A stretch of DNA of 64,000 bases from an uncultured Heliobacteriaceae bacterium (GTDB lineage: Bacteria > Acidobacteriota > Blastocatellia > RBC074), in assembly GCA_964631865.1 (NCBI GenBank), contig CAZWAK010000007.1, positions 1,934 to 65,933 on the forward strand. The letters are read 5' to 3'. A program made the position numbers and the translations under genes. Under the pieces are notes generated by a model that did no database searches, had not been told where the DNA came from, and worked only from the letters and a program-made list of their open reading frames with translations. This document shows, piece by piece, positions 22,443-64,000 of this stretch; position 1 is the first letter of the stretch; each line of letters begins with the position of its first letter.

Positions 22443-22541
22443 CACATTCAAAGAGCGTTTCTATTGTCAGGGAAACGCGGACGGTTTAGAGTCTACGGTT
22501 CGTAAAGATGTGTGTCAAGCACCTGATTTTTCGAGGATTTC

Positions 22542-32554: not shown

Positions 32555-32656
32555 AATCCTCGTAGTGGTGATTGATTTTTTCTGTCCGTGATTATGCCAG
32601 CAGTTGGCCAGGTCGAAAAGGGGAACGATTCTCCTTCTGTTGATATCCCTGAGTGC

Positions 32657-32750
32657 GCGCAGCGTTTGGAGTGCTGCGGCTTGACGTAGCTTTTTATCAC
32701 TCGAATTACCAAAGCGACGTCGAGACCGTCGCACTCCAAACGCTTCGCGC
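32657..32750. repeat. About 95-nt structured (nested inverted-repeat) element, copy A, 75 bp downstream of the TBDR stop
   Basis: Shares identical blocks agtgctgcggcttgacgtagcttt and aaagcgacgtcgagaccgtcgcactccaaacgcttcgcg with 43123-43219. Confidence 0.8.
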
Positions 32751-36090: not shown

Positions 36091-36290
36091 TGGTTATGAA
36101 GCGCAAGTGCCGCTAAAACCTGGCTTCGTAGTTGTGATGGGTGTTCGATGATTGAGGATTGGCGATAAACTCTTGTGGGCTGTCGGAAACGTTATGAGGC
36201 CAACGCGCGAGGGGCTTGCTGCGAGGAAGGTATTAGACCAGCCGGGTTCGCTGGATACAAGTTACAAAGTAATGACAATTTAATGACAGC

Positions 36291-36403
36291 GTTGGGTGCG
36301 GGGCGCATCCTGCGGGCTGAGGCTCACGGGGTGAATCCCTTATTACGATGAAAGCCTCAGCCTTCGCAAGCCTCAGCCCGCAGGATGCGCCCCGCACCCA
36401 ACA
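36291..36403. terminator. 34-bp perfect inverted repeat with a 45-nt loop, ending at the stop codon of the GMC oxidoreductase gene
   Basis: gttgggtgcggggcgcatcctgcgggctgaggct ... agcctcagcccgcaggatgcgccccgcacccaac. Confidence 0.6.
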
Positions 36404-38092
36404 TTACACCTCGCCGCGTTTGGCTTGCTCAATCAAGTATTCACTCGCGCGCATTGCCAGTGCCAGAATCGTCAGCGTCGGATTCACGCAGCCGCTCGAC
36501 ACAAAGCAACTGCCATCCACGACGAACAAATTTTTCACATCGTGCGCTTGATTGAATTGATTGAGCACCGAAGTCTTTTTGTCATTGCCCATGCGCGCGG
36601 TTCCGACTTCGTGAATGCTGTGACCGGGCGGGAACATGGCGAGGTTTTCGCTGACCAATTCGACGCCCGCCGCCTCAAACATTTCGTGCGCGCATTCAAT
36701 CGCATCGTTCGTCAGGTTTTGTTCGTTGTCGCCGTAAGCAATGTCAATCTTGAGCGACGGAATGCCCCACGCATCTTTCAGGTTCGGATCAATCGCAACG
36801 TGATTTTCCTTGCGCGCGAGGACTTCGCCAAACGCACTCATCCGCACAAACGCGGGATGCAACGCGCGGACTTCGGTTTTGAAATCTTTGCCAAAACCCG
36901 CCGTCGTTTTTGCGTGGCTGGGGAAAATCCCAGCGCCGCTCCCCGCTTGATAGCCAAAGCGGCGAATGTATTTTTGCTGCTTCGACGCTTTGTCCAAATT
37001 GCGAAACGGCGGGATGTATGTGCCTTGCGGACGCCCGTCTTCATTGACGATTTCGCGTCCTTTGAAATCTTTGATTAGCCCCGTGAAGCTCACGCCCCAC
37101 GTGTGATCGTGCAAATATTTGCCGAGCACGCCGCTCGAATTCGCCAGGCCGTTTGGATACTCGCGCGAAGTCGAATTGAGCAAAATGCGCGTGGATTCGA
37201 GCGTGGACGCGCCGAGAATCACGACTTTGCCGAGCGCTTCGTAATCGCGCTTCGAGGTGCGATCAATGAAGCGCACGCCTTTTGCTTTGCCGGTTTTGGA
37301 ATCCAACAAAACTTCGCGCACCACCGCATCCGAACGCAGCGTCAGCTTGCCCGTGTCGTTCGCCGGAGCAAGCAAGCCCGTCGGCGAATTGAACATTGCG
37401 CCGACATCGCAGCCGCGCCCGCACGTGCCGCAGTAATGACAGGCCGCGCGATATTTGTTGTGCGCGAGTTTTTCGCTGATGACGCCTGCGCGCGTCGGAA
37501 TCAAATGACGTCCGGTTTTCTCCACGCCACGCTGCAAAATCTTTTCGCCACACAGCATCGGCTGTGGCTTTTGAAAGATGCCGTCAGGCAATTGCGGCAA
37601 GCCTTCGCGTGTGCCCATAATCCCGATCAAACGATCTACGTGGTCGTAGTACGGCTGCAAATCATCGTATGAAATCGGCCAGTCATCGCCGTAACCATCG
37701 TGCGAAGCGGCTTTGAAATCGAACTCGCTCAAACGCAACGCCACGCGCCCCCACACGAGCGTGCGACCGCCGACAGCCCGCGCGCGTACCCAATCGAACG
37801 GCTTATCTTTCGGCGTCGAATACGGGTTTTCATCGAGCCGTGCGTAGATGTGTGTCGTGTAGCCGTCGGCGAACCCGTATTTGTAATTGTGCGCATCGCG
37901 CGGCGAGATGCGACCGCGATATTTTTCTTCGTACGGCCAAGTGTGCGTTTTGAAGTCGTTGTATAAATCCAGCTTCGGCCCGGCTTCGAGAACTAACACA
38001 TCCATTCCCGCTTTGGTGAGCATGTACGCCGCCATCCCGCCTGCCGCGCCCGAACCAACAATGACGGCATCATAAATTTTTTGGGTGGTCAT
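36404..38092 (-). CDS. GMC family oxidoreductase
   Basis: VIVGSGAAGG FAD-binding motif and GMC C-terminal signatures. 562 aa. Confidence 0.85.
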   Translation of the reverse strand: MTTQKIYDAVIVGSGAAGGMAAYMLTKAGMDVLVLEAGPKLDLYNDFKTHTWPYEEKYRGRISPRDAHNYKYGFADGYTTHIYARLDENPYSTPKDKPFDWVRARAVGGRTLVWGRVALRLSEFDFKAASHDGYGDDWPISYDDLQPYYDHVDRLIGIMGTREGLPQLPDGIFQKPQPMLCGEKILQRGVEKTGRHLIPTRAGVISEKLAHNKYRAACHYCGTCGRGCDVGAMFNSPTGLLAPANDTGKLTLRSDAVVREVLLDSKTGKAKGVRFIDRTSKRDYEALGKVVILGASTLESTRILLNSTSREYPNGLANSSGVLGKYLHDHTWGVSFTGLIKDFKGREIVNEDGRPQGTYIPPFRNLDKASKQQKYIRRFGYQAGSGAGIFPSHAKTTAGFGKDFKTEVRALHPAFVRMSAFGEVLARKENHVAIDPNLKDAWGIPSLKIDIAYGDNEQNLTNDAIECAHEMFEAAGVELVSENLAMFPPGHSIHEVGTARMGNDKKTSVLNQFNQAHDVKNLFVVDGSCFVSSGCVNPTLTILALAMRASEYLIEQAKRGEV

Positions 38093-38103
38093 GAGTTTCT
38101 CCT

Positions 38104-38193
38104 AAAGAGGCGTCAAGAGTTCAAGCTTCAGCTTGGTTTTTCAGTCACACAAGCGCAAACCCAAGCTAAAGCTTGAACTCTTGACGCCTCTTT
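38104..38193. terminator. About 90-nt near-perfect palindrome (25-bp outer stem plus inner stem) between the 2OG-oxygenase stop and the GMC start. Member of a palindromic element family.
   Basis: aaagaggcgtcaagagttcaagctt ... aagcttgaactcttgacgcctcttt followed by tttt. Confidence 0.65.
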
Positions 38194-38808
38194 TTAGCGT
38201 AGCAAATTGCTTTCGAGCGAACGTCGCTTGAACCAGCCTGTGAGACTAAAACGTTCGCGCGTCGCAGGCAAGACTTCGTGCGCAATCGCGTCGCTGCGAA
38301 AGAGTGCAAACGTTCCGGCGTGCGGGTAAACGTCAATGTGCTGCGCGCCTTCGTACAACCGCAATGCGCCGCCATCGGCTTCGTTCCAGTTGGCATTCAG
38401 ATACAACGAACATGAAAGAATGCGTTCATCCGCTGTGTTGAAGCGGTCGAAATGCTTTTGATAAAACGCGCCGGGCGGATAGACGGCATAATGCGCTTCC
38501 AAATCCTGCACGCCGACAAACAATTGCGCGTTGAGTTCCTGCCGCAGCGTTTCCATCGCGGTGAAATATTCAGCTTGCGGCGTAGTCAAATTCGCTTCGT
38601 CGAGCCACAAAATATGATCGCGGCGGATGTCGGCGCGAATACTGAAGTCTGCGCCGCGCCCGACGCCAGCGGATTTGAATGCGGCAGTTATCCACAACGT
38701 TTGCGCTTCGTCGGCCAAAGCAGCAATCGTGTGTGGCGCGAGCAAGTCGGTTGTAACCGCCCAGCCGTGCTCGGCGAGATGGTTAATGAGGAACGAGGTA
38801 TTTTCCAT
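38194..38808 (-). CDS. 2OG-Fe(II) oxygenase (prolyl-4-hydroxylase-like)
   Basis: ...HFDRFN...D...ALRLYEG...HEVLP..R.S.TGWF... gives the HxD...H facial triad and an RxS motif. Confidence 0.8.
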   Translation of the reverse strand: MENTSFLINHLAEHGWAVTTDLLAPHTIAALADEAQTLWITAAFKSAGVGRGADFSIRADIRRDHILWLDEANLTTPQAEYFTAMETLRQELNAQLFVGVQDLEAHYAVYPPGAFYQKHFDRFNTADERILSCSLYLNANWNEADGGALRLYEGAQHIDVYPHAGTFALFRSDAIAHEVLPATRERFSLTGWFKRRSLESNLLR

Positions 38809-39130
38809 GATGATTTGAAGATCAACTATACCTTATTCAATTTCGCCTGTCCGCCCGTTCCCAGCGTTTTGCAACGCACGAGGCTACAGCGGAAAGTTTC
38901 GCACGGTGTGCGACCGTTGTGCGCGAAAATCCGCGAATTTGTGGGGCAAGGCTCGGTTTTTCGCGCGGCATACGTTTTGCTCTCTTTGCCAAGGGGGGAA
39001 CCTGAAAAGAGCCAGTAGGGCTAGAAATCGGGGAGTTAGTGCGGTGGGTGCAGCCGCTGCACTAGAGGTTCCCCCCGTTCGATCAAGAAAACTTGGCTAT
39101 CTTGGGGCTGGATTTTTCCTTTTTCAATGC

Positions 39131-40028
39131 GAGGGATGAAATGACAGAATCAATGAAAATTTTGATGGCGTACGATGGCTCTGATTGCGCGCAGGCCGCG
39201 TTGGATGATTTACGCTCGGCGGGCTTGCCCACCAAAGCGAATGTCAAAGTGGTGGCGATTTTGGAAACGTGGTTGCCGCCGCCGTCGGGCTGGGCACTGA
39301 TGGAAGGCACGAGCAGAGCCAGTGAAGAATTGGATCGGTTGGCGCTGGCACAAGGTGCGGCGGTGTCCTTGCGCTCGATGTTTCCAGGCTGGGAGCTGAC
39401 GGCGCAGGAAGAAATCGGTTCTCCGGCCAGCGTCTTGCTGAAGATCGCAGATGATTGGAAGCCGGATTTGCTGGTCGTCGGTTCGCACAGTCGTTCCGCC
39501 GCCGGGCGCTTTTTTCTCGGCAGCGTTTCGCAAAAACTGGTTCACGAAGCGCATTGCTCAGTGCGTGTGGCGCGTGGGCGCGTGCAAGAGCCGGACACGC
39601 CGCTGCGCCTCCTCATCGGGGTAGACGGTTCCGCCGGTTCGCAAGCGGCAGTGAATGTCGTCGCACAGCGTAATTGGCCGACGAACACCGAAGTAAAGCT
39701 GGTGAACGCCACGTGGGCCGCGCCGCATTTGTTCGCTGAACCAGCCGCCTCAGCCGTGACGAAATGGTTAGCTGAAGAACACGCGCGCATCGAAACGAGC
39801 CTGCAAGAAGCACAGGAAAAACTACAAGCCGCAGGTTTGCAGGTGACGCGGCTGACCCGACAAGAAGACCCGAAAACATTGCTCTGCGAAGAGGCGGAAC
39901 GCTGGGGAGCAGATTGTATTTTTGTGGGAGCCAAAGGCGTAGGCCGCTGGGAACGGCTGTTGATTGGCAGTGTGTCTTCCGCGGTGGCGGCGCGTGCGCA
40001 TTGCTCGGTCGAGATTGTGCGTCCGTAA
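39131..40028 (+). CDS. Universal stress protein (tandem UspA domains)
   Basis: Two UspA-like halves, each with ...LLVVGSHSRS.../...FVGAKGVGR... ATP-binding-like loops. RBS gaggga lies upstream of the ATG at 39131. Confidence 0.8.
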
Positions 40029-40084
40029 AGCGCGGGCAGATGTGGGGCAGGCTGAAAACCTGCCCCATATTTTTTCGGTGCGCT

Positions 40085-40507
40085 TTATTGCCAATGTTCA
40101 CTGACGCCCGTGATGCGGTTGATGCGCAGACGAAAGACAATGGTTTCCGCTTGTTCCTGCTTGATCTGAGACTCTACGGGCGTGAGGTGCGGCAACCGCT
40201 GGAACATCGCGCCGAGGATTTGTTCGCGCTCGTCTGCCTCGGTGATCTCTTCGTACTCGCCAAACACAATGACGCTCTTCCAGTTGTAATCATCCACGAC
40301 CTCATCTACTTGCAGGCAAATCTGCGGTTGTGCCCGCATAGCACGAATTTTCAAACCGGGCAGCGAGTGCATATACAGGTCTTCGCCCGTGTACAAATAG
40401 TTGATCGGCAAAACATACGGCTCCTGGTTGACGTTGCAACCCAAACGGCCTAACTGATGAGCTTGCAGTAAAGCCCGTGCATCTTCTTTTCCAAGCGGTT
40501 CAATCAT
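40085..40507 (-). CDS. Pyridoxamine 5'-phosphate oxidase family (NimA-like FMN-binding split-barrel) protein
   Basis: ...LGRLGCNVNQEPYVLPINYLYTGEDLYMHS... Confidence 0.75.
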   Translation of the reverse strand: MIEPLGKEDARALLQAHQLGRLGCNVNQEPYVLPINYLYTGEDLYMHSLPGLKIRAMRAQPQICLQVDEVVDDYNWKSVIVFGEYEEITEADEREQILGAMFQRLPHLTPVESQIKQEQAETIVFRLRINRITGVSEHWQ

Positions 40508-40766
40508 AAGTGAAAATTCCTCTCCGGTTGGGATTCAGGCAAGCAGCGTACCGCTTTCGGGCCGGTACAGCCACTCTAAATCACGCTTTCTCTCGTCGCG
40601 CTCATAATTTTTTATTTTGCCAAAAAAGCGATTGTGCTATTATCCCGCGCCGTAAGGAAGGTAGTAAATTCAGTCCTTAACCGCTGATTCTCAATCAGCG
40701 GTTCGAGAGCAGGTTTTTGCCCGAAAGATTCCTCACCTGCTTGGTAATCCGGTCCCCGAACTCCTT

Positions 40767-41000
40767 TCAGTGTTTCATAGCCCTGTGTCTTTCGCCTGGA
40801 TTGGCAGGTTTTGTTCTTTTATAAATTGCTGGCACTTGATCATTCGTTGACCACACATACACATTATATTGGCTATCTTTTTTCCAAGTTAAGGAAACGG
40901 CTGACTCGAGAGTAGCATCTGACCGCCAGTCGCAATCTTCGGTAAAGTTCTTCACGACTTTGTTTTTCTGGTTCACTTGTTTGGTGTACGGCTTATTCAA
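40767..41000 (-). CDS. Small hypothetical protein in a locally lower-GC segment
   Basis: ORF only. Confidence 0.3.
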   Translation of the reverse strand: MNKPYTKQVNQKNKVVKNFTEDCDWRSDATLESAVSLTWKKDSQYNVYVWSTNDQVPAIYKRTKPANPGERHRAMKH

Positions 41001-41031
41001 CGATCAACTCAATTGATAGGGAGACAACGCT

Positions 41032-41298
41032 ATGAGTGCAGCAATTCAGTTAGTCAATCCACAGGCCATCTATCCTGAAAGAACCGTCGCAGAGGTCGAG
41101 TCCATCACGGTCGGCTCGAACGAACAAAAGCTGCGGCGCGCGCTCGAATACATTCACGAACTGCAAGCGGAAAACCGCCTGCTCCACGCCGAATTGGCGC
41201 GCGCCGAGCGGGCCTTGACGCATCGCGACACGCTGCTGCGCAATGCGATTTTGCGCGAGCAGGAGTTACGGGCGGAGTTGGTCAAAGGAGTTTTTTAA
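41032..41298 (+). CDS. Hypothetical coiled-coil protein
   Basis: ORF with heptad-like ...LRRALEYIHELQAENRLLHAELARAERAL... Confidence 0.4.
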   Translation: MSAAIQLVNPQAIYPERTVAEVESITVGSNEQKLRRALEYIHELQAENRLLHAELARAERALTHRDTLLRNAILREQELRAELVKGVF

Positions 41299-41509
41299 GA
41301 TTTCCGGGAAGTCCTCATAAGCCAGCGATGCTCCTCAACCCAGCCCCCTGCAATCGCTGCTCTTCAGGCCATTCTTCACGAAACTCTTGACCGGCAATCA
41401 GAAGCTTGCGGCTGACAAGCCGAAGCGAAGTGTATAAATGCGACGAGGCTCACCGATGAATGTGCTTCATCAATGAGCCTGCGACGCGCCATCGCTTTGT
41501 GCTGCGGCT

Positions 41510-42193
41510 TCAGCGGACGGGTTTGACTTCCCATTGGGAAAGCGCAGATACCGCCATGCCCATCATCACCCAACGTTTGGGCGTGGTGAGAAAATGGATG
41601 CCCACGCGCCAGAACCCTTCGGCTTGATGGGCGTATTTGACCACGCCTTCCACTTGAAATTGTCCTTCCAGTCCGTTGAGCCGGAGTAAATCGCCGACGC
41701 CGACCTGCCGGTTAAGCGAAACGCAAACGCCGCGCCGACTGACGTTCTCGGTGTAAACTTCGTCCGCAAATCCTTGTCCGAACCGATCCTTGCCCTCGAC
41801 GGTCAGCTTCACGCCCAGCCGCACGCGGGTGTCGCGCAAACGGACGCCGGGCATGTCGTCCACCTCTCTTTCGACACTGCTTTTGTCAATGATCTCCTGC
41901 ACTTTGGCCAGATCGCTTTCCGCAATTTCCAGAAACCGCACGCCCACGCCCACTTCGCTCTGCACAAAACGCACCTGCGCTGTGGCTTGAATAAACGTGC
42001 GATCCGGTAAATTGAGTCGGAGATGCACCAACGCACCGGCTTGCAAGGGTAATTTGGTTGCAATGAAAACCCCTCCGATACTGAGGTTCGTCGCTTTGAC
42101 CCGGTACGTTTCTCCCTGGCAAAACAAAGTTACGGGGTATCCTGTGTCCACGCGGCGATAGCGCCGTTTATCTGTGTAGTTTTCTTTGGTCAT
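41510..42193 (-). CDS. Tandem PilZ domain protein (c-di-GMP receptor-like)
   Basis: RRYRRV...NLSIGGVF and RLRDTRVR...ENVSRRGVCV match the RxxxR / DxSxxG PilZ motifs twice. Confidence 0.75.
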   Translation of the reverse strand: MTKENYTDKRRYRRVDTGYPVTLFCQGETYRVKATNLSIGGVFIATKLPLQAGALVHLRLNLPDRTFIQATAQVRFVQSEVGVGVRFLEIAESDLAKVQEIIDKSSVEREVDDMPGVRLRDTRVRLGVKLTVEGKDRFGQGFADEVYTENVSRRGVCVSLNRQVGVGDLLRLNGLEGQFQVEGVVKYAHQAEGFWRVGIHFLTTPKRWVMMGMAVSALSQWEVKPVR

Positions 42194-42721
42194 GATCGGA
42201 CTCCACTTTTTCTCGTAGTAATCTCAGGGGCACGGGGGCTGCCATCTGTCAGCTTCTTTGTACGCCGCTTTTGTTTTCCCGTTGTTTTAATCTGATGATG
42301 AAGCTGTAACGCCCTGGAAATCTCGCGCTCTCAGAAAGGCTGAGGCCGGGGCCGGAAGTGGTTCGATCAAAGCGTTGATCTGGTGATTTTTCAGAGACTT
42401 AAACCCTCCTTCACTCGGCTCTAACACGGCTTGCCTAGACTTGGCGCGTTCGTTGGAAGCGGAACATCGTCCGCTTCCTTGTGCTGGAACAAGCCCGGTT
42501 GTCTTTGCGAGCTTCGGTCATCCGTTCCAGCGATTCCTGGCTTGACGGGGCGGAAAACGCAAGGGGAGGCGTGTGACGGAGAAGGCGAACGAGAAGTCAT
42601 CCCAGGAAAGGTCATCGCGCCAGCTTGGGGGAGTTGAGCGGGACACGCACTACGGGGGCAAGCCGCATGAACCGGGCACCAGCATCATCACAATTTTGCT
42701 GCTTTTGCTGATACAGGTTTG

Positions 42722-42768
42722 GAGGCGCAGGCAAAGTTAGGGGGAAATTGTCTGCGCCTTTTTTTTTG
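42722..42768 (+). terminator. Rho-independent terminator (plus strand)
   Basis: ggcgcag gcaaagttagggggaaattgt ctgcgcc followed by T9. Confidence 0.6.
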
Positions 42769-42789
42769 CTCGCAACACGGAAGGAGTTT

Positions 42790-42885
42790 ATGCGTCGAGA
42801 TGTTTTAGCCTTTGGCTCTGTCAGCCTGCTGGTCTTTCTCTTATTGGTCGCTACGATCTGGTATTTGCTCCCGCCAGTTCGTTGA
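42790..42885 (+). CDS. Putative 31-aa hydrophobic peptide
   Basis: Strong SD ggaaggag 7 nt upstream of the ATG. MRRDVLAFGSVSLLVFLLLVATIWYLLPPVR. Speculative. Confidence 0.3.
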   Translation: MRRDVLAFGSVSLLVFLLLVATIWYLLPPVR

Positions 42886-43122
42886 ATCGCACCAAATCAT
42901 CGCGCACCGTTGTCGCGTTGCAAGTCGTGAGAACCAGCTTTGCACCGCGCTCCAACAACGCCTCAAACAACAGCACCATTTTGCTTTCGAGATGCACGCT
43001 CCAGCCACACGCCCGTCAAATCGGGCATTGCCGCAATCGCACGTTGCGTGCGCGGCATGTGCAGGCGCATCCAAGCGAGGTCAGTGGCGCTGGCATGGAC
43101 AAAGATGGGGAAGAGAATGAAT

Positions 43123-43219
43123 TGCGATGCCACGCGAAGCGTTTCTCAGTGCTGCGGCTTGACGTAGCTTTGGCATCGCTACGAAGACAAAAGCGACGTC
43201 GAGACCGTCGCACTCCAAA
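43123..43219. repeat. About 95-nt structured element, copy B, 17 bp downstream of the second TBDR stop
   Basis: See copy A at 32657-32750. Same orientation relative to the upstream TBDR gene. Confidence 0.8.
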
Positions 43220-43235
43220 CGCTTCGCGTGAACGA

Positions 43236-46200
43236 TCAAAACGTGAACTTCACCGCCAACTGCAATTGACGCGGGTCGCCCACGCCTTGCCGCAGGAAGC
43301 CGTCAAAATTGAACAGCCCCGGCGTAATCAGCGGATTGATGAGGTTCCGGTTATTGAAGGTATTGAACATCTCGATGGTCGGAATCAGTGCGAAGCGTTC
43401 GCCGCCGAAACGGAACGGACGCGACACGCGCCAATCGAACGAGAAGAATTCGTTTTCCTTGCGCGTCGTGTTGCGGTTCGTCGCCGTCCGCGTGCCCGGC
43501 GTGATCGGTTGCGCGGAACGAGCCTGAATGCGCGTGTTCACCTGCAAACCGCCCCAGATTTCGCCGTAGAGCAGGAAGTTGAATTTGTGGCGAATGTCGC
43601 GGTCGGAGAGCGCGTAATCGAGGCGCAGATTGCGGATGTCGAACGAACGATCTGAGAACGGGTCGCGTTCGTTGGAGTCGTCGTCCAGGTCTTTCGACCA
43701 CACGTAATTGCCGTCCAATTGAAAACCTCTGCTCAGCCGTTTGCGCACACCGATTGTGAAGCCACGATAGAGCGATTTGCCGACTGAACTTGTAATCGCC
43801 GTTTCATCCAGATACGGCGCGAAGATGCCTAGGCGTCCGTAGTTCAAAAAGCGCGTCAGCCGCACGCCTTTGGAATGCGTGAAGTCGAGATAGAGCGCCG
43901 TGTCCGTAGCAATCTGTTGCTCAAACTGCACGTTCGTCGTGTAAATACGCGGGTTCGTGTAATCGCGGCTGAACGCGCGCACGCCTGAAAAACACGGGAA
44001 CGGATTGGTGCCGAGCGAGCCGCTACAGGTTTGTGCCGTCGGCGTCAGCACGCCCGGCCACGTCGGCGCAGGCAAGCCGAACCCGATCAACTCTGTGTTG
44101 CGGAAGATGGTTTGTTGCTGCACGCCGTTCGTCGTGATCGAACCGACTTGCGACAACATATTTTGCCGCGCGTTGTAAATGCCCCACGAAGCGCGCAGCA
44201 CCGATTTGCTGTTGTTTGCGAAATCCCACGCGAAGCCGATGCGCGGTTGGAACATCTTCCATTGATCGGGCAACGTGCCATCGGACGGGAAACGCGGATC
44301 GCGCAGGAACAAACCGTACGCCGTTTTGGCAGGCTCAACCGTTGGGTTCGGCAAGACCTGTGCTTCCCAACGCAAACCGAACTGCCACGTGAAGCCGGGA
44401 CGCCATTGCCATTTGTCCTGCACGAACGCCGCGAACTCATCGTTGTTGATGTCAGACGCACCGGCTGCATCAGTAGCGGGGCCGCTGGGGCCTGCGCCTT
44501 GCAAATACAACAGCAACGGGCCGCCTGTCGCCGTCGTTCCAGTTGGACAAGCGGCTGTCGCGGCGACATACGTTCCGTTCGAGCAGCCTTTGATGTTTGG
44601 CCCGAATCCTGCGCCCAGGCTCGCGGGCGAGGCATAACGTAAAAATCCGGTCACGCTGTCAAAGATGTAGCGCGCGGTGAAGAAGCCGCGAAAGACCTGT
44701 GTGTTGTTGCTGCGAATGTATTCGCCGCCGAATTTCAGGTTGTGTCCGCCCGCGATGATGGAGAAGCTGTCGCGCACCTGAAACCGCTGGAACAATTCAT
44801 CAATGCCGGGTTGTATAAAGAACGGGCTGCCGAAACGAAACGTCGTGGCAAAGCCCATCGCCGTGTCCGCCGGGACGTTCGATTGCACGGCGCTGCGCGG
44901 ACGATCTTCGCGCGAAAACGTCGCGTGAAATTCATTGAGCTTCGTGCTGGACAACGATGAGTACAGGTTCCAATTCAGCACATTGATTTTGCCCGGCCCT
45001 TCCGTGCCGTTCGCCGAATTGCCATACGTCGCCACATCGAAAGTTTCGTTGTCTTTGCGCGAGCGGCTGAAGTTGTATGAAAACGCAAAATCATTGGCAT
45101 CGCTGAATTTCCAATCCAGTTTGCCCAAAAACGCCGACGTATTGACCGGTTTTTTCAGCGGCAAGCCTTCGTCCTGTTGGCGCGTGGTTTTGAAAAAGTT
45201 GATGAGCGCGAGGCGTTGGCAATCGGCGCTGCTGTTGATGAGGGCTTCGTTGGCCTGAATCGTCGGAGCTTGAAGGCTGCACGGCGTGCCAATCGGCACA
45301 CTCAAATTCGCGCGCGTGAAGTTGCCAGTGATTTGCTCGAACGCGCCGAAGAAAAACGCTTTGTCCTGCACCAGCGGGCCGCCCAGCGTGCCGCCGAATT
45401 GCTCACGGTGAAAATCTTTGAGCGAATTGCCATCGGACGTTTTGGCCGTCATGTTTTCGTGGCGTTGGAAATGAAAGATCGTGCCGCGAAAATTATTCGT
45501 GCCGGATTTGGTGATGACGTTCACGACACCGCCTGCGGTGCGTCCGAATTCAGCCGATGCGCCCGTCGCCACGACCTGAAATTCCTTGATCGCGTCGAGC
45601 GTGATGTCAATGGCCGCGCGCTGTCCGCCGACCTGTTCGCCGAAGAAGCCGTTGTTGTAATCGCCGCCGTCCAAACTGATGTTATTGAAGACGCCGCGTT
45701 GCCCGGCAAAATTGACGACATCGCCGTCCGGCCCTTGCGTGACGCTGACGCCGGGCGTCAGCGTGAGCATATCCAGAAACTTGCGCCCCAGCACTGGCGT
45801 GTTGGAGACCGCGACTTCATTGAGCGTCGAACTGGATTCGGTTTTCACGGTGTCAATCGTCGGCGCACTGGTGATCGTGATGGTTTCTTCCACTGACGAA
45901 ACTTTCATTTGCAACGACAAACTGATCGTTTGTCCGACCGTTAACGAAAGGCTTTCCTGTCGCAGTTTGGCGTAGCCTTGCTTCGCTACTTGCAACTCGT
46001 AACGACCCGGTTGCAATTGCAAAAAAGCAAAGCGCCCTTCCGCATCTGAAACCAAAACTCTCGTCAAATTATTGTCCAGATTTTTGGCTTCAATATTCGC
46101 ACCGGGCACGACTGCGCCGGCCTGATCGGTGACGGTTCCCTGAATAACGCCGGTCGTGCTTTGGGTTTGAGCGAAAGCGGGGAGAGAACATAAAAGCAAT

Positions 46201-46237
46201 AATAAGAGGCTGATGCCTCGTCGTAGATGACAAATCA
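43236..46237 (-). CDS. TonB-dependent receptor with an N-terminal carboxypeptidase regulatory-like domain
   Basis: Signal peptide MICHLRRGISLLLLLLCSLPAFAQ, ...GTVTDQAGAVVPGANIEAKN..., about 1000 aa, terminal ...LAVKFTF. Confidence 0.8.
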
Positions 46238-46503
46238 TTGGCGTGCTCCTTCTCGAAAAAAATAACCTGTGTCTCAAGTTTCTTGTGACCGCATTTGATG
46301 GCTGGCGATTGTATGAAGCCATCCCGCATTCGGCAAGGGCTGGGAAAGATTTTTGCGCAAATCAAATCCATGTTAGCGCGAGGTTAAGCGGAGCCAATAT
46401 TAACAGGGGTTTGCTGCATCATTTTGACAATGTGAGCGAGGATGGCCACAATGCAGGCGCGTCGTTTTTCTTCGTCAAAATGTTCCGAAACTGAGGAGGT
46501 CTT

Positions 46504-47268
46504 TTGCGCTACCAACTCGCGCTCACACGCAAGCCGGGCAACTCGTTTCGCCAGGGCATCACGACCGCCCAACTCGGTGCGCCGAACATCGCGCTGGCCT
46601 TGCAGCAACACGCACAATACGTTGCCGCGCTCCGAGCCTGTGGCCTTGTGGTGCTTGAGCGGGAAGCCGATGAGCGATTCCCCGATGGTTGTTTTGTCGA
46701 AGACACGGCGCTCATCACCGCCGAATTCGCGGTCATCACGAATCCTGGTGCGCCGAGCCGACGCGGCGAAACGGCGGCGATAGCGGCGGTGTTGCAGCAG
46801 TATCGCCCGCTGAAGTTTTTGCCTCAGGCAGTAACGTTGGACGGCGGCGATGTGTTGTTGATTGAGCAAACTTTTTACGTCGGCCTTTCGGCACGCACGA
46901 CGATGGAAGCCGCGTCAGCATTGGCCGAAATCGTTCAGCCACACGGTTACGAAGTGGTTCCCATCGTGGTCGCAGACATCCTGCATTTGAAAACCAGCGT
47001 TTGTTACCTGGGCGATAAAACGATTGTCGCCACGCAACAATTCGCTGGTTGCTCTGAGTTTCGAGACTACCAAAAAATCGTGACGTTGCCCGCCGAAGAC
47101 TACGCCGCGAATTGTTTGCGCATCAATGACCACATCGTGATGGCGGCGGGCTTCCCGGAGTTGAAACGCAAGCTGCAACAACTTGAATGTCCGGTGCTGG
47201 AAGTGGAAATGAGCGAGTTCCGCAAGATGGATGGCGGGCTGACCTGTTGTTCGCTGTTGTTGTCATAG
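46504..47268 (+). CDS. N(G),N(G)-dimethylarginine dimethylaminohydrolase (DDAH) family protein
   Basis: ...ERFPDGCFVEDTALI...PSRRGET...HLKT...YAANCLRIND...FRKMDGGLTCCSL parallels the Pseudomonas DDAH motifs, including the C-terminal catalytic Cys. Confidence 0.8.
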   Translation: MRYQLALTRKPGNSFRQGITTAQLGAPNIALALQQHAQYVAALRACGLVVLEREADERFPDGCFVEDTALITAEFAVITNPGAPSRRGETAAIAAVLQQYRPLKFLPQAVTLDGGDVLLIEQTFYVGLSARTTMEAASALAEIVQPHGYEVVPIVVADILHLKTSVCYLGDKTIVATQQFAGCSEFRDYQKIVTLPAEDYAANCLRINDHIVMAAGFPELKRKLQQLECPVLEVEMSEFRKMDGGLTCCSLLLS

Positions 47269-47277
47269 GAGTGAAAT

Positions 47278-48528
47278 ATGAAATTGCTTGTCACGCTGAT
47301 GAGCCTGTGTTTATTGAGTCTCGCGCCCGTTTGGGGGCAAACGAAAGCCAAATCGTTCCTCACCTCTGAACTGATTTTTCCGCTCGAACATTGGCACAAC
47401 CACGCTTCGTGCATCGTCGAAGCGCCCAACGGCGATCTGCTTGTCTGCTGGTTTCACGGCTCCGGCGAACGCCAAGCGGACGATGTGATCGTTGAGGGCG
47501 CACGTTTGAAAAAAGGCGCGAAGCAATGGTCGCCGCGCTTCACGATGGCCGACACGCCGGGCTATCCCGACACGAATTGCACGATGTTCGTTGATCCAAA
47601 CAATCGCCTGTGGCTGCTGTGGCCGACGATTATGGCGAACCTGTGGGAAAGCGCGTTGATGAAATACAAAATTGCTTCGCAGTGGACAGGCACAGGTGCG
47701 CCGAAGTGGGACGTGCAGGAAGTCTTGCACGTCACGCCGGGACAAGAGTTCGTGGACGGTGTGAACAAGGCGATGGATCAACTGGAACACACGAACGCGC
47801 AATCGTCAGAATATCCGCGCGAAACCTTGCAAGCTTACATCGCACGAATGCGCAAGATGGCTGCCGACAAACTCACGCGCCGCATCGGTTGGATGACGCG
47901 CGCGCATCCGTTTGTTTTGGACAACAAGCGCCTCATCGTGCCGCTCTATTCCGATGGCTTTTCAATTTCGTTGATGGCGATTACAGACGATTGGGGCCAG
48001 ACGTGGCACACAAGCACGCCGCTGGTCGGCGGCGGCAACATTCAACCGAGCATCGTGCGCAAGCGCGATGGCACGCTCTACACGCTGATGCGCGACAACG
48101 GCCCGCCGCCGAAACGCCTGCATCAAAGCGAATCGAAAGACAACGGCGAAACCTGGTCGCCCGTGACCGACAGCGAACATCCGAATCCCGGCTCCGGCGC
48201 TGAAATCATTGGTTTGCGCAACGGGCATTGGGCGTTGATTTCCAACGACACCGAACGCGGTCGCCACAGCCTCGCCGTTGCCATTTCCGACGACGAAGGC
48301 AAAACGTGGAAATGGAAACGTCATCTCGAACTTGATACCTCAGCCGAAGCCAGTTCGTTTCACTACCCCTCGCTCCTCCAAGCCAAAGACGGCACGTTGC
48401 ACGCCACCTACAGTTATTTCGTGAATAAAAAAGAAGTGCCTGTGGACAAAGACGGCAAGCCGATGCGCAAGGCGATCAAGCACGCGCATTTCAATGAAGA
48501 GTGGGTGATGGAAGGCAATTCCAAGTAA
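47278..48528 (+). CDS. Secreted BNR/Asp-box repeat exo-alpha-sialidase-like glycoside hydrolase
   Basis: Signal peptide and Asp-boxes TDDWGQTW, SKDNGETW, SDDEGKTW. Confidence 0.7.
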   Translation: MKLLVTLMSLCLLSLAPVWGQTKAKSFLTSELIFPLEHWHNHASCIVEAPNGDLLVCWFHGSGERQADDVIVEGARLKKGAKQWSPRFTMADTPGYPDTNCTMFVDPNNRLWLLWPTIMANLWESALMKYKIASQWTGTGAPKWDVQEVLHVTPGQEFVDGVNKAMDQLEHTNAQSSEYPRETLQAYIARMRKMAADKLTRRIGWMTRAHPFVLDNKRLIVPLYSDGFSISLMAITDDWGQTWHTSTPLVGGGNIQPSIVRKRDGTLYTLMRDNGPPPKRLHQSESKDNGETWSPVTDSEHPNPGSGAEIIGLRNGHWALISNDTERGRHSLAVAISDDEGKTWKWKRHLELDTSAEASSFHYPSLLQAKDGTLHATYSYFVNKKEVPVDKDGKPMRKAIKHAHFNEEWVMEGNSK

Positions 48529-48547
48529 AGCTGCGCCCGCGAACACA

Positions 48548-48624
48548 GGCGTCAAGAGTACGCGCTTCAGCGTGATTTTGCTTTCGATGACAAACCCTCA
48601 CGCTGAAGCGTGTACTCATGACAC
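48548..48624. terminator. 28-bp-stem hairpin between the convergent sialidase-like and murQ genes. Second member of the palindromic element family.
   Basis: ggcgtcaagagtacgcgcttcagcgtga ... tcacgctgaagcgtgtactcatgacacc, then tctttt. Confidence 0.65.
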
Positions 48625-48630
48625 CTCTTT

Positions 48631-49521
48631 TCACGATTTCAGTTCAGCCACAGCCTGCGCGACCAATTGATTCGACTTTGCCAACGCCGCGTCTGCGATC
48701 TCCCGATTTACATTCGCTTGCTGCATCACGAGCGCCACAGGCAATCGCCAATCCGCTGCTTCCAACACGGCGCGCGCTGTCGCGGCATCTACCTTGCATT
48801 CGTCCTGCACGATGCCGACCGCGCGTTCGCGCAGCTTGATGTTTTTGGTTTGCAGGTTCGCCATGCGATTGCCCTTCACATAGCCGAGCCGCACCAGCGC
48901 CATCGTCGAAAGCATATTCAGCACGAGCTTTTGTGCGGTGCCGGATTTCAGCCGCGTCGAACCGGCGATGACTTCGGGGCCGACAATCGGTTCAATTGGA
49001 ATTTCGACCGCTGCCGCGAGTGCGGTGTTCGCGTTGCACGTGATGCACGCGGTCAATGCGCCGAGTTGCCGTGCGTATTCGACTGCGCCGATGGTGTACG
49101 GCGTGCGACCGCTCGCAGCAATGCCGACGACGACATCGTTGGCGTTGACGTGGCGCGCTTGCAAATCGCTCGCGCCCGCGGCGCGATCATCTTCGGAGGC
49201 TTCGACGGCTTTGTAACAAGCTTCGTAGCCGCCTGCGATGATGCCTTGCACGAGTTCGGGCGACACGCCAAACGTCGGCGGACATTCCGCAGCGTCGAGC
49301 ACGCCCAAGCGTCCGCTCGTGCCTGTGCCGACGTACAACAAACGGCCTCCGCGCGCGAGCCGTTCGACGATTGCGTCAACGGCGTTCGCAATCGCGGGCA
49401 GGACTTGCGCAATGGCATCGGCGACTTTTTTGTCTTCGGCATTGATGATTTGTAAGGCTTCGAGCGTAGAGACGCGATCAATTTCTGCGGTGTTGGGGTT
49501 GGGTTGTTCAGTGGTGGTCAT
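48631..49521 (-). CDS. murQ: N-acetylmuramic acid 6-phosphate etherase
   Basis: SIS domain ...LLYVGTGTSGRLGVLDAAECPPTFG... Confidence 0.85.
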   Translation of the reverse strand: MTTTEQPNPNTAEIDRVSTLEALQIINAEDKKVADAIAQVLPAIANAVDAIVERLARGGRLLYVGTGTSGRLGVLDAAECPPTFGVSPELVQGIIAGGYEACYKAVEASEDDRAAGASDLQARHVNANDVVVGIAASGRTPYTIGAVEYARQLGALTACITCNANTALAAAVEIPIEPIVGPEVIAGSTRLKSGTAQKLVLNMLSTMALVRLGYVKGNRMANLQTKNIKLRERAVGIVQDECKVDAATARAVLEAADWRLPVALVMQQANVNREIADAALAKSNQLVAQAVAELKS

Positions 49522-50780: not shown

Positions 50781-50854
50781 AGTTGTCAGTTGTCAGTGGC
50801 TGGTTGTCAGCTACTGTGTTTTTGCTGGCAACTGACAACCGACAACTGACAACT
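50781..50854. promoter_or_regulatory. Heptamer-built palindrome (TTGTCAG x3, T-rich centre, CTGACAA x3) in the divergent promoter region between the kinase gene and the LysR gene
   Basis: agttgtcagttgtcagtggctggttgtcag ctactgtgtttttgctggcaa ctgacaaccgacaactgacaact. Confidence 0.6.
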
Positions 50855-50858
50855 GCTT

Positions 50859-56395: not shown

Positions 56396-58356
56396 CTCGC
56401 TTCTTCGCTCAACCAAGCCTGGAACATCAAAATGGGCCATAAGTAATAATGCCAATTGCGCGCGCCGGACAAATGCTCAAGCCATCGCTCCCGCACTAAA
56501 TCTGCTTTGAAAAAGCCTTCCGTGCGCAAGCGGTTTTCATCAATCAACGCCTCCGCCCATTCGCGCAACGGCCCGCGCAACCAAACATCAATCGGCACGC
56601 CGAACCCTGTTTTCGGGCGTTCGATCAATTCACGCGGAACAAACTTATAAAGCAGTTGCCGCAAAATCCATTTGCCTTTGCCGTCCCGAATTTTCAGGTG
56701 CAGCGGCAAACGCCAGGCGAATTCAATCACGCGATGATCGAGAAACGGAACTCGTGTTTCCAGACTCACGCCCATCGCCGCGCGATCTACTTTCACCAGA
56801 ATGTCATCGGGCAAATATGTCATGAAGTCCAGAAACATCATGCGTTGCTCAAAATTTGTCCCGTCGCCCCAAGCTTGACTAATAGCCATCGCAGTCGGGT
56901 CTTCGTGCGTGTGCAACACCAAATCGTCCGTTTTCTTCCAGGTCGAAATCAAACTCTGATAAATAGCCTCTGGCTGCTCGACCACCAGAATCTCCGCCAG
57001 TTTATGCAGTTTGTCGCCGGGCACGTTGTAGCGCAGGCTGCCGGGAATAATCATTTTCAGCCCCTGAAACGTGTGATTCCAGGTGGTCGGCGAGACGGTT
57101 GTAATCCCAGCAGCAGCGGCCTTTCTAAGTCCGAGTGGAATCCAACCCAGCTTGTTCCAGATGTTGGTCGCCCAAAAATATCGGTTGTACCCACCAAACA
57201 ATTCGTCTCCGGCATCGCCCGACAAACTGACCGTCACCTTCCGCCGCGCCAGTTGAGAGACGAGGAAGGTGGGAACTTGTGACGAATCGGCGAAGGGTTC
57301 ATCGTACAGTGCAGGCAGCTTCGGGATCACCGCCAACGTTTCGGCGGGCGTGACATAAAATTCTGTGTGATCGGTGCCCAAATGACGCGCCACCGCCTTC
57401 GCAAATTCTGCTTCGTTGTATTCGGTCTCGTGAAAGCCAATCGTAAAGGTCTTGACCGCTGACGCCGACTCGGCCTGCATTAAAGCCACAATCAACGAAG
57501 AGTCTATGCCGCCCGACAAAAACGCGCCGAGCGGCACATCGGCGATCATCTGCCCGCGAATCGTTTCGCGTAAGATCGTCTCCAATTCGGTCAACGCTTC
57601 TTCTGCCGTGCCGGAAAACATCTGAGCGCGTGCTTGATGGGCAATCTCCACCGGGTCCCAATACGGCTTCGGCACTAGGCTTTCTTTGCGCCCACAAGCC
57701 GCCAACGGAATCGTCAGAATCGTGCCCGGCAACAGCTTGTAAATACCGCGATAGATCGAATACGGCGCGGGAATATAGGTATAGCGCATCAAGAGCGCCA
57801 GCGCTTTTCGCTCGACTTCTCCGCGCCAATCTGGGTGCGCACACAACGCTTTCAATTCCGAGCCAAAGAGCAACGCCTCGCCGACCCAGCCATAATACAG
57901 CGGCTTCTCTCCAGCGCGATCTCGCACCAGATGTAGCACTTGTTCTCGCCGATCCCACACCGCGAACGCGAACATCCCGACGAAGCGTTTGACCGCCGCT
58001 TCTATGCCCCATTGAGTAAAAGCGGCCAGCATAACTTCCGTGTCCGAATGGCCTCGAAAACCGTGTCCTAAAGACTCTAACTTCGCTCTTAACAGTGGGA
58101 AGTTATAAATCTCTCCGTTGAAGACAAGCACATATCTGCCGTCCGCAGAAAGCATCGGTTGATGGCCTTCCGGGGACAAATCCACGATGGACAGACGGCG
58201 ATGCCCCAATCCAATTCCCGTTTCGGTCTCCACCCAGGCACCACTGTCATCCGGGCCGCGATGAAGCACCGCACAGGCCATCTGCGCAGCGATGTTCGTG
58301 AGTTCTGCTTCGCTTCGGTGATTCGCGGAATCAAGAAAACCCGTTATGCCACACAT
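56392..58356 (-). CDS. asnB: Asparagine synthase (glutamine-hydrolysing)
   Basis: N-terminal MCGITGF... GATase Cys2, and the PP-loop SGGIDSS. Confidence 0.85.
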
Positions 58357-58364
58357 AGCAATCG

Positions 58365-59456
58365 TTACCTGATAGGATGGGATAAGACTTCTCGATAAAG
58401 GTTTTCGTAGCGCGCGACGACGGAACTTAAACTAAAATGTTCTTCAATCCTACGCCGCGCCGCCGCACCCAACGCAACTCGTTCAGGTTTACTCATCATC
58501 AATATCGTTCGCCATCCAGCAGCCAACGCCTGCGCGTCGCGCGGCGGTACTACAAGACCAGCGTCGCCGATTATCAGGGCCGAATCGCCCACGTCTGTAG
58601 CCACACACGGAACGCCACAAGCCATGGCTTCTCCCAGCACATTGGGGAAGGCTTCGCTTTCCGAAGAACTAGTGGCAAGGTCAAGAGCGAGCAGAATCGG
58701 CGTGACATCTTCACGCCTTCCAAGCAAAAAGCAAGCGTGTTCAATGCCTGTCTGTTGCAGGAGCGCCATCAATTCCTTGTTCTCCCAATGAATTCCGTTG
58801 CCGCAAAGAAGAAAGCGAGCAGCAGGCATGTCTTTCAGCAGTAAAGCTGCCGCCTGAGCAAAATTAGGAAGGCCTTTTCTGCGATCATATCGAGTAATTA
58901 GCCCGATCAATGGCGTTGTACTTTCCAAACCCAATTCCTGGCGAAGCGAAGTAGAATTTTCCTGACTAGCCCGATAATGTGTTAGGTCAAAGCCATTAGG
59001 GATAACGACTATTTTGTCGGAATCATAACCCATTTCAAGGTGCGACTTCCGGGCGGTTTCCGAACAACTAACAATGCGAGTAGGAAGCAATGACGATAAG
59101 CGGGCACAGACTTTAGTTAGTATAAACGTCTTTTTATCTTTGATATAAGGAGCAACGTCAGCTCTGATATTCCATACGACGGTGGCATTTGTACTGAGTT
59201 TTCCTACAATGCCCGCCATCAAATCTGCGTGGTACATCCAGGTTTGAATAATATCTACGGGGCGACCTGCCAGGTAACGCCAGAGCCTCCCTAATTTCGC
59301 AGGTGAAGGAATTTGCATCCCTTGCCTCAGCCCCAACGCCCTAACCGGGATGCCGAGCTGCTGAATTTTTTCTCCTAATTGCCCCTGATCTGTTAACGAG
59401 ATAACTTCCAAATCAAATACTTCTTTATTCATGCCGACGAGAAGTCTATAAAGCAT
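58365..59456 (-). CDS. Glycosyltransferase family 4 whose N-terminal beta-strand/Gly-loop is encoded upstream of the first ATG
   Basis: GT4 motifs (...[27 protein letters not shown]...). The in-frame upstream codons read ...KIHIVHVISGLLAGGAES before MLYRLL, with no ATG/GTG/TTG. Confidence 0.65.
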
Positions 59457-59566
59457 TGATTCAGCCCCTCCGGCAAGAAGCCCGCTAATAACGTGAACAA
59501 TATGAATTTTATTTTGCAGAAGCCAAAACCATCCGTAACCTGCGATAGGCGAGCTATCTCAGATAG

Positions 59567-60424
59567 TTATTTTTTGTACCCCACGGCTGTCCAGAATTGA
59601 TCTGTATGGAAAGTAATATCACGTAACCCCGCCCGCAGCATCATTTGCCTCACTTGTAATTGCGTGAAGCGTTGTTCGAGGCGCGTCCCAAACCGGTCAA
59701 GCGCATCATTTCTCATCACGTACAACGTACGGTGGCGATACCAGGCTAAGGGAAAGTGTTCTACATTTACCCCCAGTGCTTCTAACCCTAAAGCAAAACG
59801 AGCCAGTGGCCAGTAAATTAACCTCGCTAATATGTCACTTATGAGAGATCTTAGAGGAAGAGGTAGCCGAGAGATAAGGCGGCGGGCTAAGTCACTTCCT
59901 TTCCAAATCAACCTAAACCAAAACGGACGGTTATCAAACGCATAATACAAATAGAGTAAGAAAGGAGCACCAGGTTTGAGTTTGGCAATACATTGCCGAA
60001 GCCCAGCCTCCGTATCAGGAACATGGTGCAACACTCCTAATGAATATCCAAAATCAGCAGAGTTATCAAGTAAAGGAATAGCATCTACACTGGCTTGATA
60101 AAACTGACAATTTGACACTTCCTTAAGATTTAGGCGCGCAACATCAAGTGCTTCCGCACTAGGGTCAATCAGATGTAAGAAGCCAACTCGTGGGGTAACG
60201 AATTTCGCCCATCTTCCACTGCCACAACCTAAATCAAACCCCACCGCATTCGGTGGTAACTTCTCCCAGGGGAAAATATTAAAATAACTATCAAACATCA
60301 CAGACAACTCTGCGGCTGAGAGCTTCGATTGATCAAATCGTTGCCACTCGTCCCCAAACCCCTTTACAACTTCTTCGTGAATATTTGCGGCTGTCATTGC
60401 CTGGGGAAATAAGGAATTCCGCAT
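59567..60424 (-). CDS. Class I SAM-dependent methyltransferase
   Basis: ...VGFDLGCGSGRWA... motif I. Confidence 0.7.
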   Translation of the reverse strand: MRNSLFPQAMTAANIHEEVVKGFGDEWQRFDQSKLSAAELSVMFDSYFNIFPWEKLPPNAVGFDLGCGSGRWAKFVTPRVGFLHLIDPSAEALDVARLNLKEVSNCQFYQASVDAIPLLDNSADFGYSLGVLHHVPDTEAGLRQCIAKLKPGAPFLLYLYYAFDNRPFWFRLIWKGSDLARRLISRLPLPLRSLISDILARLIYWPLARFALGLEALGVNVEHFPLAWYRHRTLYVMRNDALDRFGTRLEQRFTQLQVRQMMLRAGLRDITFHTDQFWTAVGYKK

Positions 60425-60425
60425 C

Positions 60426-61802: not shown

Positions 61803-61919
61803 ATTTCTTATTCAATCTATCAACCAACTTTGTAGTTATGTGATTACACAAAGTAAATGTTGATGGCTAAATACTGCATTAAACTCCGGACTGCAAGACA
61901 ACTCCATTTGCTATACTGA

Positions 61920-63062: not shown

Positions 63063-63078
63063 TCTTTCCTAATCAACC

Positions 63079-63882: not shown

Positions 63883-64000
63883 TATTTTCTTTTCTCAAGC
63901 TTTGAATACTAAAACAGTCCATCTTAATTTTCTTGGCGACAAAATAGTAACGCGATGTTTATTTAGGTGAGGTTCGGACTATATACAGTACCTATTAAGC

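Follow-up and report, generated by a model that had tools for sequence, protein, structure and literature searches.

Two palindromic elements, e1 (38104–38193) and e2 (48543–48630), in a 64,000-nucleotide stretch of DNA (hereafter the window; contig CAZWAK010000007.1 of an uncultured member of the Blastocatellia, Acidobacteriota) are most probably (rough probability 0.87) REPINs, i.e. non-autonomous mobile elements composed of two inverted repetitive extragenic palindromic (REP) units, which spread with a REP-associated tyrosine transposase (RAYT), a single-domain HUH/Y1 enzyme. They represent a known kind of element in a little-studied phylum and not a new RNA structure. This assignment follows from their architecture of two inverted units, each possessing its own small hairpin. 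The features found are those of REPIN/RAYT systems: an extragenic repeat, inverted doublets, palindromic units, a RAYT gene flanked by the repeat (in relatives) and a Y1/HUH protein scoring above the model cut-off (locus L016). Blastocatellia are abundant, poorly cultured soil bacteria, and studies of REPINs and RAYTs have almost entirely been devoted to Proteobacteria and Cyanobacteria. No report of REPINs in Blastocatellia was found in the literature (open-access text only), and a clear, co-diverging REPIN-RAYT system has now been demonstrated for this group.

Both palindromes were recovered by an inverted-repeat search of the window at the places where an earlier note, made from the sequence alone, had observed them. 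The arms of e1 (inverted repeat I1; 38104–38140 and 38157–38193) comprise 37 nt with 95 % complementarity and those of e2 (inverted repeat I4; 48538–48575 and 48598–48635) 38 nt with 84 %; neither element as a whole is assigned to a strand. Searched with the family profile (nhmmer), e1 scored 74.5 bits (E 2e-21) and e2 62.8 bits (E 1e-17). The left REP unit of e1 (38109–38135, plus strand) consists of the foot GGCGTCAAGAGT (38109–38120) and a 5-bp hairpin (CAAGC-TTCA-GCTTG, 38122–38135), while the right unit (38162–38188, minus strand) is the reverse complement of the left one, with the hairpin CAAGC-TAAA-GCTTG (38162–38175) followed by the foot ACTCTTGACGCC (38177–38188). Likewise, the left unit of e2 (48548–48574, plus strand) harbours the foot GGCGTCAAGAGT (48548–48559) and the hairpin CGCGC-TTCA-GCGTG (48561–48574), and its right unit (48599–48625, minus strand) the hairpin CACGC-TGAA-GCGTG (48599–48612) and the foot ACTCATGACACC (48614–48625; GGTGTCATGAGT when read from the minus strand). 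The exact 12-mer GGCGTCAAGAGT occurs at three sites in the window, all of which locate in arms of e1 and e2, and the fourth arm carries GGTGTCATGAGT. Upon alignment, the four arms display a mean column identity of 77 %, including the GCTTCAGC box (GCTTYAGC). The common termini, the internal box and the differences flanking it are thus present as the note had described them.

The note had suggested a pattern search for further copies, a version of which (GGCGTCAWGAGT-N(40–70)-ACTCWTGACRCC, one genome per species) yielded 30 loci, designated here by L numbers. Of these, 24 contain elements alignable over their full length, all in metagenome-assembled genomes (MAGs) of Blastocatellia or unclassified Acidobacteriota, where individual MAGs carry several copies. 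Searching the collected loci with a profile added two copies, and a single-arm scan of metagenome contigs for a parent element retrieved four loci only, all ordinary doublets from assembly WBZS01. Overall, 28 full copies (scan loci and window) and four in WBZS01 amount to 32, i.e. 30 beyond e1 and e2; all belong to Blastocatellia/Acidobacteriota assemblies, and up to nine were present in the examined loci of MAG GFS_12554. No match was obtained in the viral contigs scanned for the family. The further copies that had been envisaged hence exist in many genomes, and the similarity is not confined to the 13-nt terminus, the whole arm being alike.

From 62 arms the consensus (A-rich)-ACAGGCGTCAAGAGTT-CAAGC-TTYA-GCTTG-(T-rich) was derived, in which the foot GGCGTCAAGAGT is invariant and the box self-complementary. 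A REP unit of about 37 nt accordingly comprises an A-rich lead, the foot CAGGCGTCAAGAGTT, the 5-bp hairpin CAAGC-TTYA-GCTTG and a T-rich tail; all copies (32/32) are inverted doublets with a variable spacer of 15–45 nt. In one arm of 11 of the 28 copies, GGTGTC replaces GGCGTC (columns 8/67 of alignment A2), a C-to-T change at CpG that does not prefer the transcribed strand. Annotators thereby gain a concrete consensus (AAAACAGGCGTCAAGAGTT-CAAGCTTYAGCTTG ... inverted). Pattern matches in Actinomycetota (L011, L021, L028) and in a Woesearchaeota MAG (L031) have the 12-mers alone in common and were excluded. Two palindromes from one Acidobacteriota MAG (L005, 3200–3269; L009, 7838–7907) possess the foot GGCGTCATGAGTTC (14 nt) as in the family and an unrelated interior (GGAAATACAARCACC); they were set apart and may represent a sister REPIN family. 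Three Logan contigs (L001–L003) and one NCBI contig (L034) carrying the 2-oxoglutarate (2OG)-Fe(II) oxygenase gene, which adjoins e1 in the window, stop 26–56 nt past this gene, inside the palindrome; the element accounts for short-read assembly breaks at these sites.

A RAYT gene was first detected by tblastn of all collected loci with an E. coli RayT sequence. This probe is not counted as evidence; the identification is based on NCBIfam and Pfam scores together with an alignment of homologues. A single open reading frame (ORF) matched (L016, 6262–6864, 200 aa), scoring 81.7 bits against NCBIfam NF047646 REP_Tyr_transpos (equivalog model; cut-off 80) and 27.2 bits against Pfam Y1_Tnp PF01797 (cut-off 23). 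It is abutted on both sides by complete copies of the family (6152–6238 and 6865–6950). As L016 had been selected for carrying the element, two more loci were fetched via RAYT homologues alone. In L048, from another assembly (RAYT 81 % identical), REP units are located upstream (3886–3927 and 3946–3986) and a further REP unit (4667–4704) as well as a full REPIN (4727–4815) downstream of the gene. In L049, from a member of the Pyrinomonadaceae (RAYT 62 % identical), the gene lies between diverged copies (3851–3928 and 4617–4681), two more of which occur within 8.6 kb; these repeats have the foot GGCGTTTAGAGTT and the box CAATC-TTCA-GATTG. Since a diverged RAYT is here accompanied by diverged repeats, repeat and enzyme diverge together. 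Alignment of eight homologues revealed H87-Y88-H89 (HYH, the HUH motif) and N146-Y147..H149.N151-P152-V153 (NYVHHNPV, the catalytic Tyr motif) to be invariant. At E<=1e-10, 1313 homologues were obtained; those with a named source belong to Blastocatellia, Pyrinomonadaceae or Acidobacteriota; JGI lists several as REP-associated tyrosine transposase. A mobile or duplicated hairpin family of REP/MITE (miniature inverted-repeat transposable element) type, as the note had proposed, is supported in the form of a dispersed REPIN family whose RAYT is bracketed by copies in three relatives.

Compensatory changes were analyzed in a gap-free alignment of 25 copies (74 columns), counting pairs under two alternative structures. 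With a single long hairpin, i.e. pairing between the arms, 88.0 % of the box positions are paired, with four double-changed cells and 4–9 unpaired copies per variable pair. With an outer stem and a small hairpin in each arm, the two boxes are paired to 96.0 % and 93.6 %, with 16 double-changed cells, and none of 500 shuffles (0/500) matched the whole-structure covariation score or the number of double-changed cells of this structure. The copy in L006 has CAACC..GGTTG in the left and CACGC..GCGTG in the right arm, such that cross-arm pairing is impossible and each box is still self-complementary. In the loops, the left Y and the right R vary independently among 28 copies (T/A 9, C/G 6, T/G 6, C/A 7) and behave as loop positions. 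Covariation between the arms was found in the outer stem only, at columns 13/62 (A-U 17, U-A 5) and 18/57 (U-A 17, A-U 3, C-G 1). The earlier note, comparing e1 and e2, had recognized paired differences in opposite arms and proposed the long stem to be under selection for structure. Compensation proved to be real, but the changes in the box are mostly intra-arm (16 versus four double changes) and the box pairs better within than between arms, which does not sustain selection on the long stem; in e2 the within-arm constraint is masked, because both arms have the same box variant. Covariation supports the REP-level (clover) fold, as would be used by a hairpin-reading HUH transposase.

Folding models predict that the whole element can form either the long hairpin or a clover with one 5-bp hairpin per REP unit atop an outer stem of ~17 bp; for e1 and e2, the former is more stable by 16–23 kcal/mol. 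Both folds have been published for REPINs (PMC3116915, Fig. S11 legend), of which compensatory changes are a generic property (PMC3116915); for this reason such changes do not indicate an RNA function here. The methodological lesson is that, where a repeat is palindromic, compensatory changes do not attest a functional RNA. If the RAYT acts like IS200/IS605 TnpA or the RAYT of E. coli (summarised in PMC3116915 and PMC3733652), it would move the elements in a single-stranded DNA mechanism. A RAYT dimer, probably acting at the replication fork on single-stranded DNA, might read the small REP hairpin together with the foot 5' of it, and would cut and rejoin the DNA with no duplication of the target. 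In this scheme, the enzyme would recognise the clover, and the stable long hairpin would be the element at rest. Inspection of the flanks revealed no target-site duplication at any of the 32 copies. Effects on transcripts (protection of 3' ends, partial termination, RNase III cleavage) are possible as a by-product, as has been reported of other REPs.

In the window, e1 is positioned between two minus-strand genes, i.e. between the stop of the 2OG-Fe(II) oxygenase gene (38194–38808; Pfam PF13640, E 1.2e-21), whose TAA overlaps the A-run of the element, and the ATG of a GMC oxidoreductase gene (36404–38092; Pfam PF05199/PF00732), whose Shine-Dalgarno sequence (AGGAG) and ATG follow 1–10 nt past it. 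Two genes converge on e2, a BNR/sialidase-like gene (47278–48528, plus strand; Pfam PF13088, E 1.1e-43) and a MurQ-like SIS gene (48631–49521, minus strand; Pfam PF22645/PF01380). The placement at gene 3' ends given in the note (after the 2OG gene and between the convergent sialidase-like and murQ genes) is borne out by ORFs and Pfam. It had also reported a short T-run at each end; T-rich ends do exist, but the trailing T-run of e1 on the minus strand, i.e. the sense strand, amounts to only 3 nt (CUCUUUAGGAG) and borders directly on the Shine-Dalgarno sequence and start codon of the GMC gene, and the runs form the symmetric outer part of the palindrome. Among 28 classified copies, 18 have tandem, four convergent and none divergent neighbours, and 22 of the 28 lie between genes at 3' ends; the copy in L008 is on inspection also tandem, and tandem copies often abut the next start codon. 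Two copies of one MAG are open in the same reading frame: that in L033 (425–500; ORF 1–2031) contributes an in-frame segment which follows a Pkinase domain (aa 1–127) and precedes a transmembrane/TPR part, and that in L006 occupies 545–626 (ORF 1–2043). Both add about 26 residues (DNRRQEFSLQ...TLKRELLTPEA); the location within one protein is clear in L033.

Orthologous sites show gain, loss and replacement of elements. At the 3' end of the 2OG gene, L034 (protein 82 % identical) contains an e1-like copy inside which the contig ends, L037 a decayed e1-like copy, and L035 and L036 a different hairpin built from GGATTGACA heptads; L038–L040 have no element at this position and the GMC gene is also missing. 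The block missing from the latter three comprises e1, the GMC gene and a palindrome at 36291–36402 (window 36100–38200; corresponding sites L038 10612–10876, L039 10606–11031 and L040 9057–9292), and the 2OG gene there directly precedes the conserved leader (TTGTCATTAAATTGTCATTACTTTGT...GGCTGGTCTAATA) of a TonB-dependent receptor gene. The spacer between the sialidase-like and MurQ genes lacks e2 in L045–L047 and instead harbours an extra gene (L045), a different doublet family (L046) or a third long palindrome (L047). By lineage, this spacer contains a CCCTGGGTAYGCAGGCGTCCCGCCTGCG doublet in GFS_12554, the third long palindrome in WBZS01 and the studied family in the window. A mini-hairpin in L046 (CAGGCGTCCCGCCTG) at the site orthologous to e2 was considered as an excision footprint and rejected, as it is a unit of the other doublet family and also present in L022.

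Several observations weigh against the assignment of e1 and e2 to REPINs. The arm consensus is devoid of the GTAG tag, and a conserved GTAG tetranucleotide is found at the 5' end of the best-studied REPs, i.e. in the systems of RAYT groups 2 and 3. The apparent copy number is modest, with two copies per 64 kb here and only four loci matching a single arm exactly in the metagenomes scanned; classical REPIN populations consist of hundreds of copies. The RAYT locus L016 came in through the element itself and therefore provides no unbiased test. It is also the only one to pass the cut-off of 80 bits for NF047646, below which five other RAYT homologues remain (64–75 bits); as these still match the model (E 1e-18 to 1e-21), they point to a divergent RAYT clade. 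No RAYT gene was found in the 64-kb window, where 30 ORFs were scanned for transposases with none detected. The link to a cognate RAYT is consequently seen in relatives only, and the genome to which the window belongs presumably carries the gene outside of it. Among the orthologous loci, a clean empty site (identical flanks, precise absence) was not encountered, so that mobility is deduced: relatives without an element at the e1 site also lack the GMC gene, and those at the e2 site have another gene or another palindrome. Excision intermediates were not recovered.

Among other explanations for the family, a primary role as selected RNA structures is improbable, i.e. as bidirectional intrinsic terminators or 3'-end stabilisers that were duplicated or recruited for the benefit which their hairpin brings to the adjoining genes. 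The folds are indeed very stable: RNAs of e1 and e2 reach −56 to −66 kcal/mol on either strand (e1, −57/−62.6 kcal/mol, z about −11; e2, −55.9/−65.9 kcal/mol), corresponding to z values of −8 to −11 versus dinucleotide shuffles. In 21 oriented copies, however, the sense strand shows no excess of G-U pairs over A-C mismatches (10 versus 17). The A-run ahead of the palindrome and the T-run behind it, which the consensus displays, are equally devoid of strand asymmetry (T downstream 4.5 of 10 nt versus A upstream 4.0 of 10 nt), as expected for a DNA-level element; because T downstream matches A upstream, both runs represent the outermost symmetric part of the palindrome. The T-runs are moreover short, the transcribed strand of e1 offering UUU before the AGGAG and ATG of the next gene. 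Although copies accumulate at gene 3' ends with none between divergent genes, 18 of the 28 reside within runs of same-strand genes, whose downstream member would be silenced if termination were complete, and the two copies in L033 and L006 are translated in frame. A terminator scan picks up the small box hairpin with T-rich sequence at 38121–38136 and 48559–48574, yet terminator-like sites in the 20-kb region number 35 against a shuffled expectation of 34.8, and the elements possess arms of 34–38 nt or branched stems in place of the compact G+C-rich stem-loop with U-tract of an intrinsic terminator. That the same orthologous intergenic sites are occupied by different palindromic families in different lineages could mean that a hairpin is wanted there; on the other hand, the box covaries within the arms, a feature not required of a terminator stem, and the association with RAYT accounts for dispersal without an RNA function. 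These pairing counts, symmetric runs, tandem placements and in-frame read-throughs leave the role as hairpin terminators assumed in the earlier note unsupported. Rfam at gathering threshold yielded only the transfer-messenger RNA (tmRNA) in the window, and a permissive search around e1 and e2 only sub-threshold matches, i.e. an ilvH cis-regulatory RNA (E 0.75) and otherwise eukaryotic microRNA precursors, the latter being generic hairpins.

An origin as conventional MITEs, i.e. internally deleted derivatives of DDE insertion sequences moved via their terminal inverted repeats, would fit the size (~80–95 nt), the terminal inverted repeats and the dispersal in intergenic DNA, and in L037 a DDE_Tnp_1 gene and the decayed e1-like copy are about 1 kb apart. 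Neither a solo arm nor a long element with these ends was present around a DDE gene (~500 kb examined; parent insertion sequence not found), none of the 32 copies (0/32) has a target-site duplication, and the sole gene bracketed by arms, in three genomes, is the Y1/HUH RAYT. Hairpin covariation within the arms also suits a structure-reading HUH enzyme and not a sequence-reading DDE enzyme, rendering such an origin very improbable. The chance that e1 and e2 are merely two unrelated hairpins that look alike is negligible: with two mismatches allowed, the 12-mer GGCGTCAAGAGT has nine matches in the window versus 5.4 expected, which is no significant over-representation, but the three exact matches are all in e1 and e2, and profile E-values of 1e-17 to 1e-21 together with the 30 additional full copies in related genomes already refute it.

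REPIN-RAYT systems were defined in Pseudomonas fluorescens SBW25 and E. coli (Bertels & Rainey 2011, PMC3116915; PMC3337134; PMC5581495). The REPINs of Blastocatellia resemble these in the inverted REP pair, the less conserved spacer, the long-hairpin and clover folds, the frequent compensatory changes, the extragenic location, the RAYT flanked by its own repeat, the co-divergence by lineage and the lack of target duplication. They differ in the acidobacterial host, the missing GTAG tag, a copy number apparently below that in Pseudomonas, a REP hairpin of only 5 bp preceded by an invariant 15-nt foot, and a RAYT of 200 aa with HYH motif and proline-rich N-terminus. The enzyme is by description similar to TnpA-REP subclass 2.8, which is characterized by ~199 aa, an NHYH HuH motif, a YIHYNP-type Y motif, a proline-rich N-terminal domain and long REPs (PMC6006769): it has 200 aa, PNHYH, NYVHHNPV and an N-terminal RRPLHSPPHW, this resemblance being one of description only. 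In contrast to the Blastocatellia host, subclass 2.8 was cyanobacterial in the sample of Quentin et al. 2018 (PMC6006769).

CGTC REPs possess an unpaired tag directly 5' of an 8–9-bp stem, a 4–5-nt loop, a CCA tail and, as reported, no dedicated transposase (Di Nocera et al. 2013, PMC3733652), and variation from CGTC to TGTC has been noted in them (PMC3733652). The foot of the Blastocatellia family likewise contains CGTC, with TGTC in one arm of 11/28 copies, and the copies are mainly inverted dimers, some of them intragenic; however, CGTC is 8 nt away from a 5-bp stem and paired in the doublet, a CCA tail is lacking and a RAYT is present. Membership in the CGTC-REP families as defined was rejected, since tag position, pairing, stem and tail all differ. 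For Acidobacteria, TIRYT/TIRtron elements have been described, in which long inverted repeats enclose a RAYT-like gene (PMC3733652); compared by description alone, these are similar in having such a gene between inverted repeats. The in-frame insertions of ~26 residues in L033 and L006 are reminiscent of Rickettsia palindromic elements (RPEs), but the Blastocatellia copies are mostly intergenic and have no sequence similarity to RPEs. Correia and ERIC elements are palindromic, MITE-like repeats that alter the fate of mRNA; Correia elements duplicate a TA target, and their mobilisation has been linked to the DDE type. The present family is similar to Correia (Neisseria) and ERIC elements in forming ~100-nt palindromes in operons and at 3' ends that give long RNA hairpins, and differs from Correia elements in the lack of target duplication and in the Y1 transposase as partner enzyme.

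Further palindromes were observed at or near comparable sites. Two more doublet families, each with an own small hairpin per arm, occur in L046 (7270–7370), L022 (2830–2925), L047 (7260–7385) and L012 (~6300); in other lineages, both family G (CCCTGGGTAYGCAGGCGTCCCGCCTGCG) and family X (CTGCTGGGAGCGCACGCGGCTCGCGTGCTGAGG) were found at the e2-orthologous position, and the octamer CAGGCGTC is common to family G and the studied REPIN family. It is conceivable, though rather unlikely, that several unrelated REPIN-like families of Blastocatellia repeatedly land in the same 3'-end sites. If this reflects more than neutral turnover, the host may need a strong hairpin at the 3' end and recruit any REPIN that happens to be active, or pre-existing hairpins may be the target of the elements. 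It is likewise conceivable that the family described here represents a REP containing CGTC and equipped with a RAYT of its own; this, if true, would provide a RAYT for a class reported without dedicated transposase.

Directly after the stop of the GMC gene, the palindrome at window position 36291–36402 has perfect arms of 34 nt (GTTGGGTGCGGGGCGCATCCTGCGGGCTGAGGCT), with no second copy in the sequence examined. Long intergenic hairpins at 19771–19857, 10139–10228 and 50781–50855 have arms composed of short tandem repeats (TTGGTGG heptads, CAAAGGGA-like units, AGTTGTC heptads); each closely follows the stop codon of a gene in a same-strand array, and the GGATTGACA-heptad hairpin of L035 and L036 resembles these tandem-repeat-arm hairpins. 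Two copies of another palindrome of ~95 nt (32655–32750 and ~43129–43228), nearly identical over most of their length, are each positioned just downstream of a paralogous gene for a TonB-dependent outer-membrane receptor. The tmRNA gene of the window (22077–22443, minus strand) scored 142 bits versus Rfam RF00023. Finally, the G+C content decreases from ~0.56 to 0.41–0.49 across a set of clustered genes for glycosyltransferases and methyltransferases (58000–64000), which is probably a polysaccharide locus.

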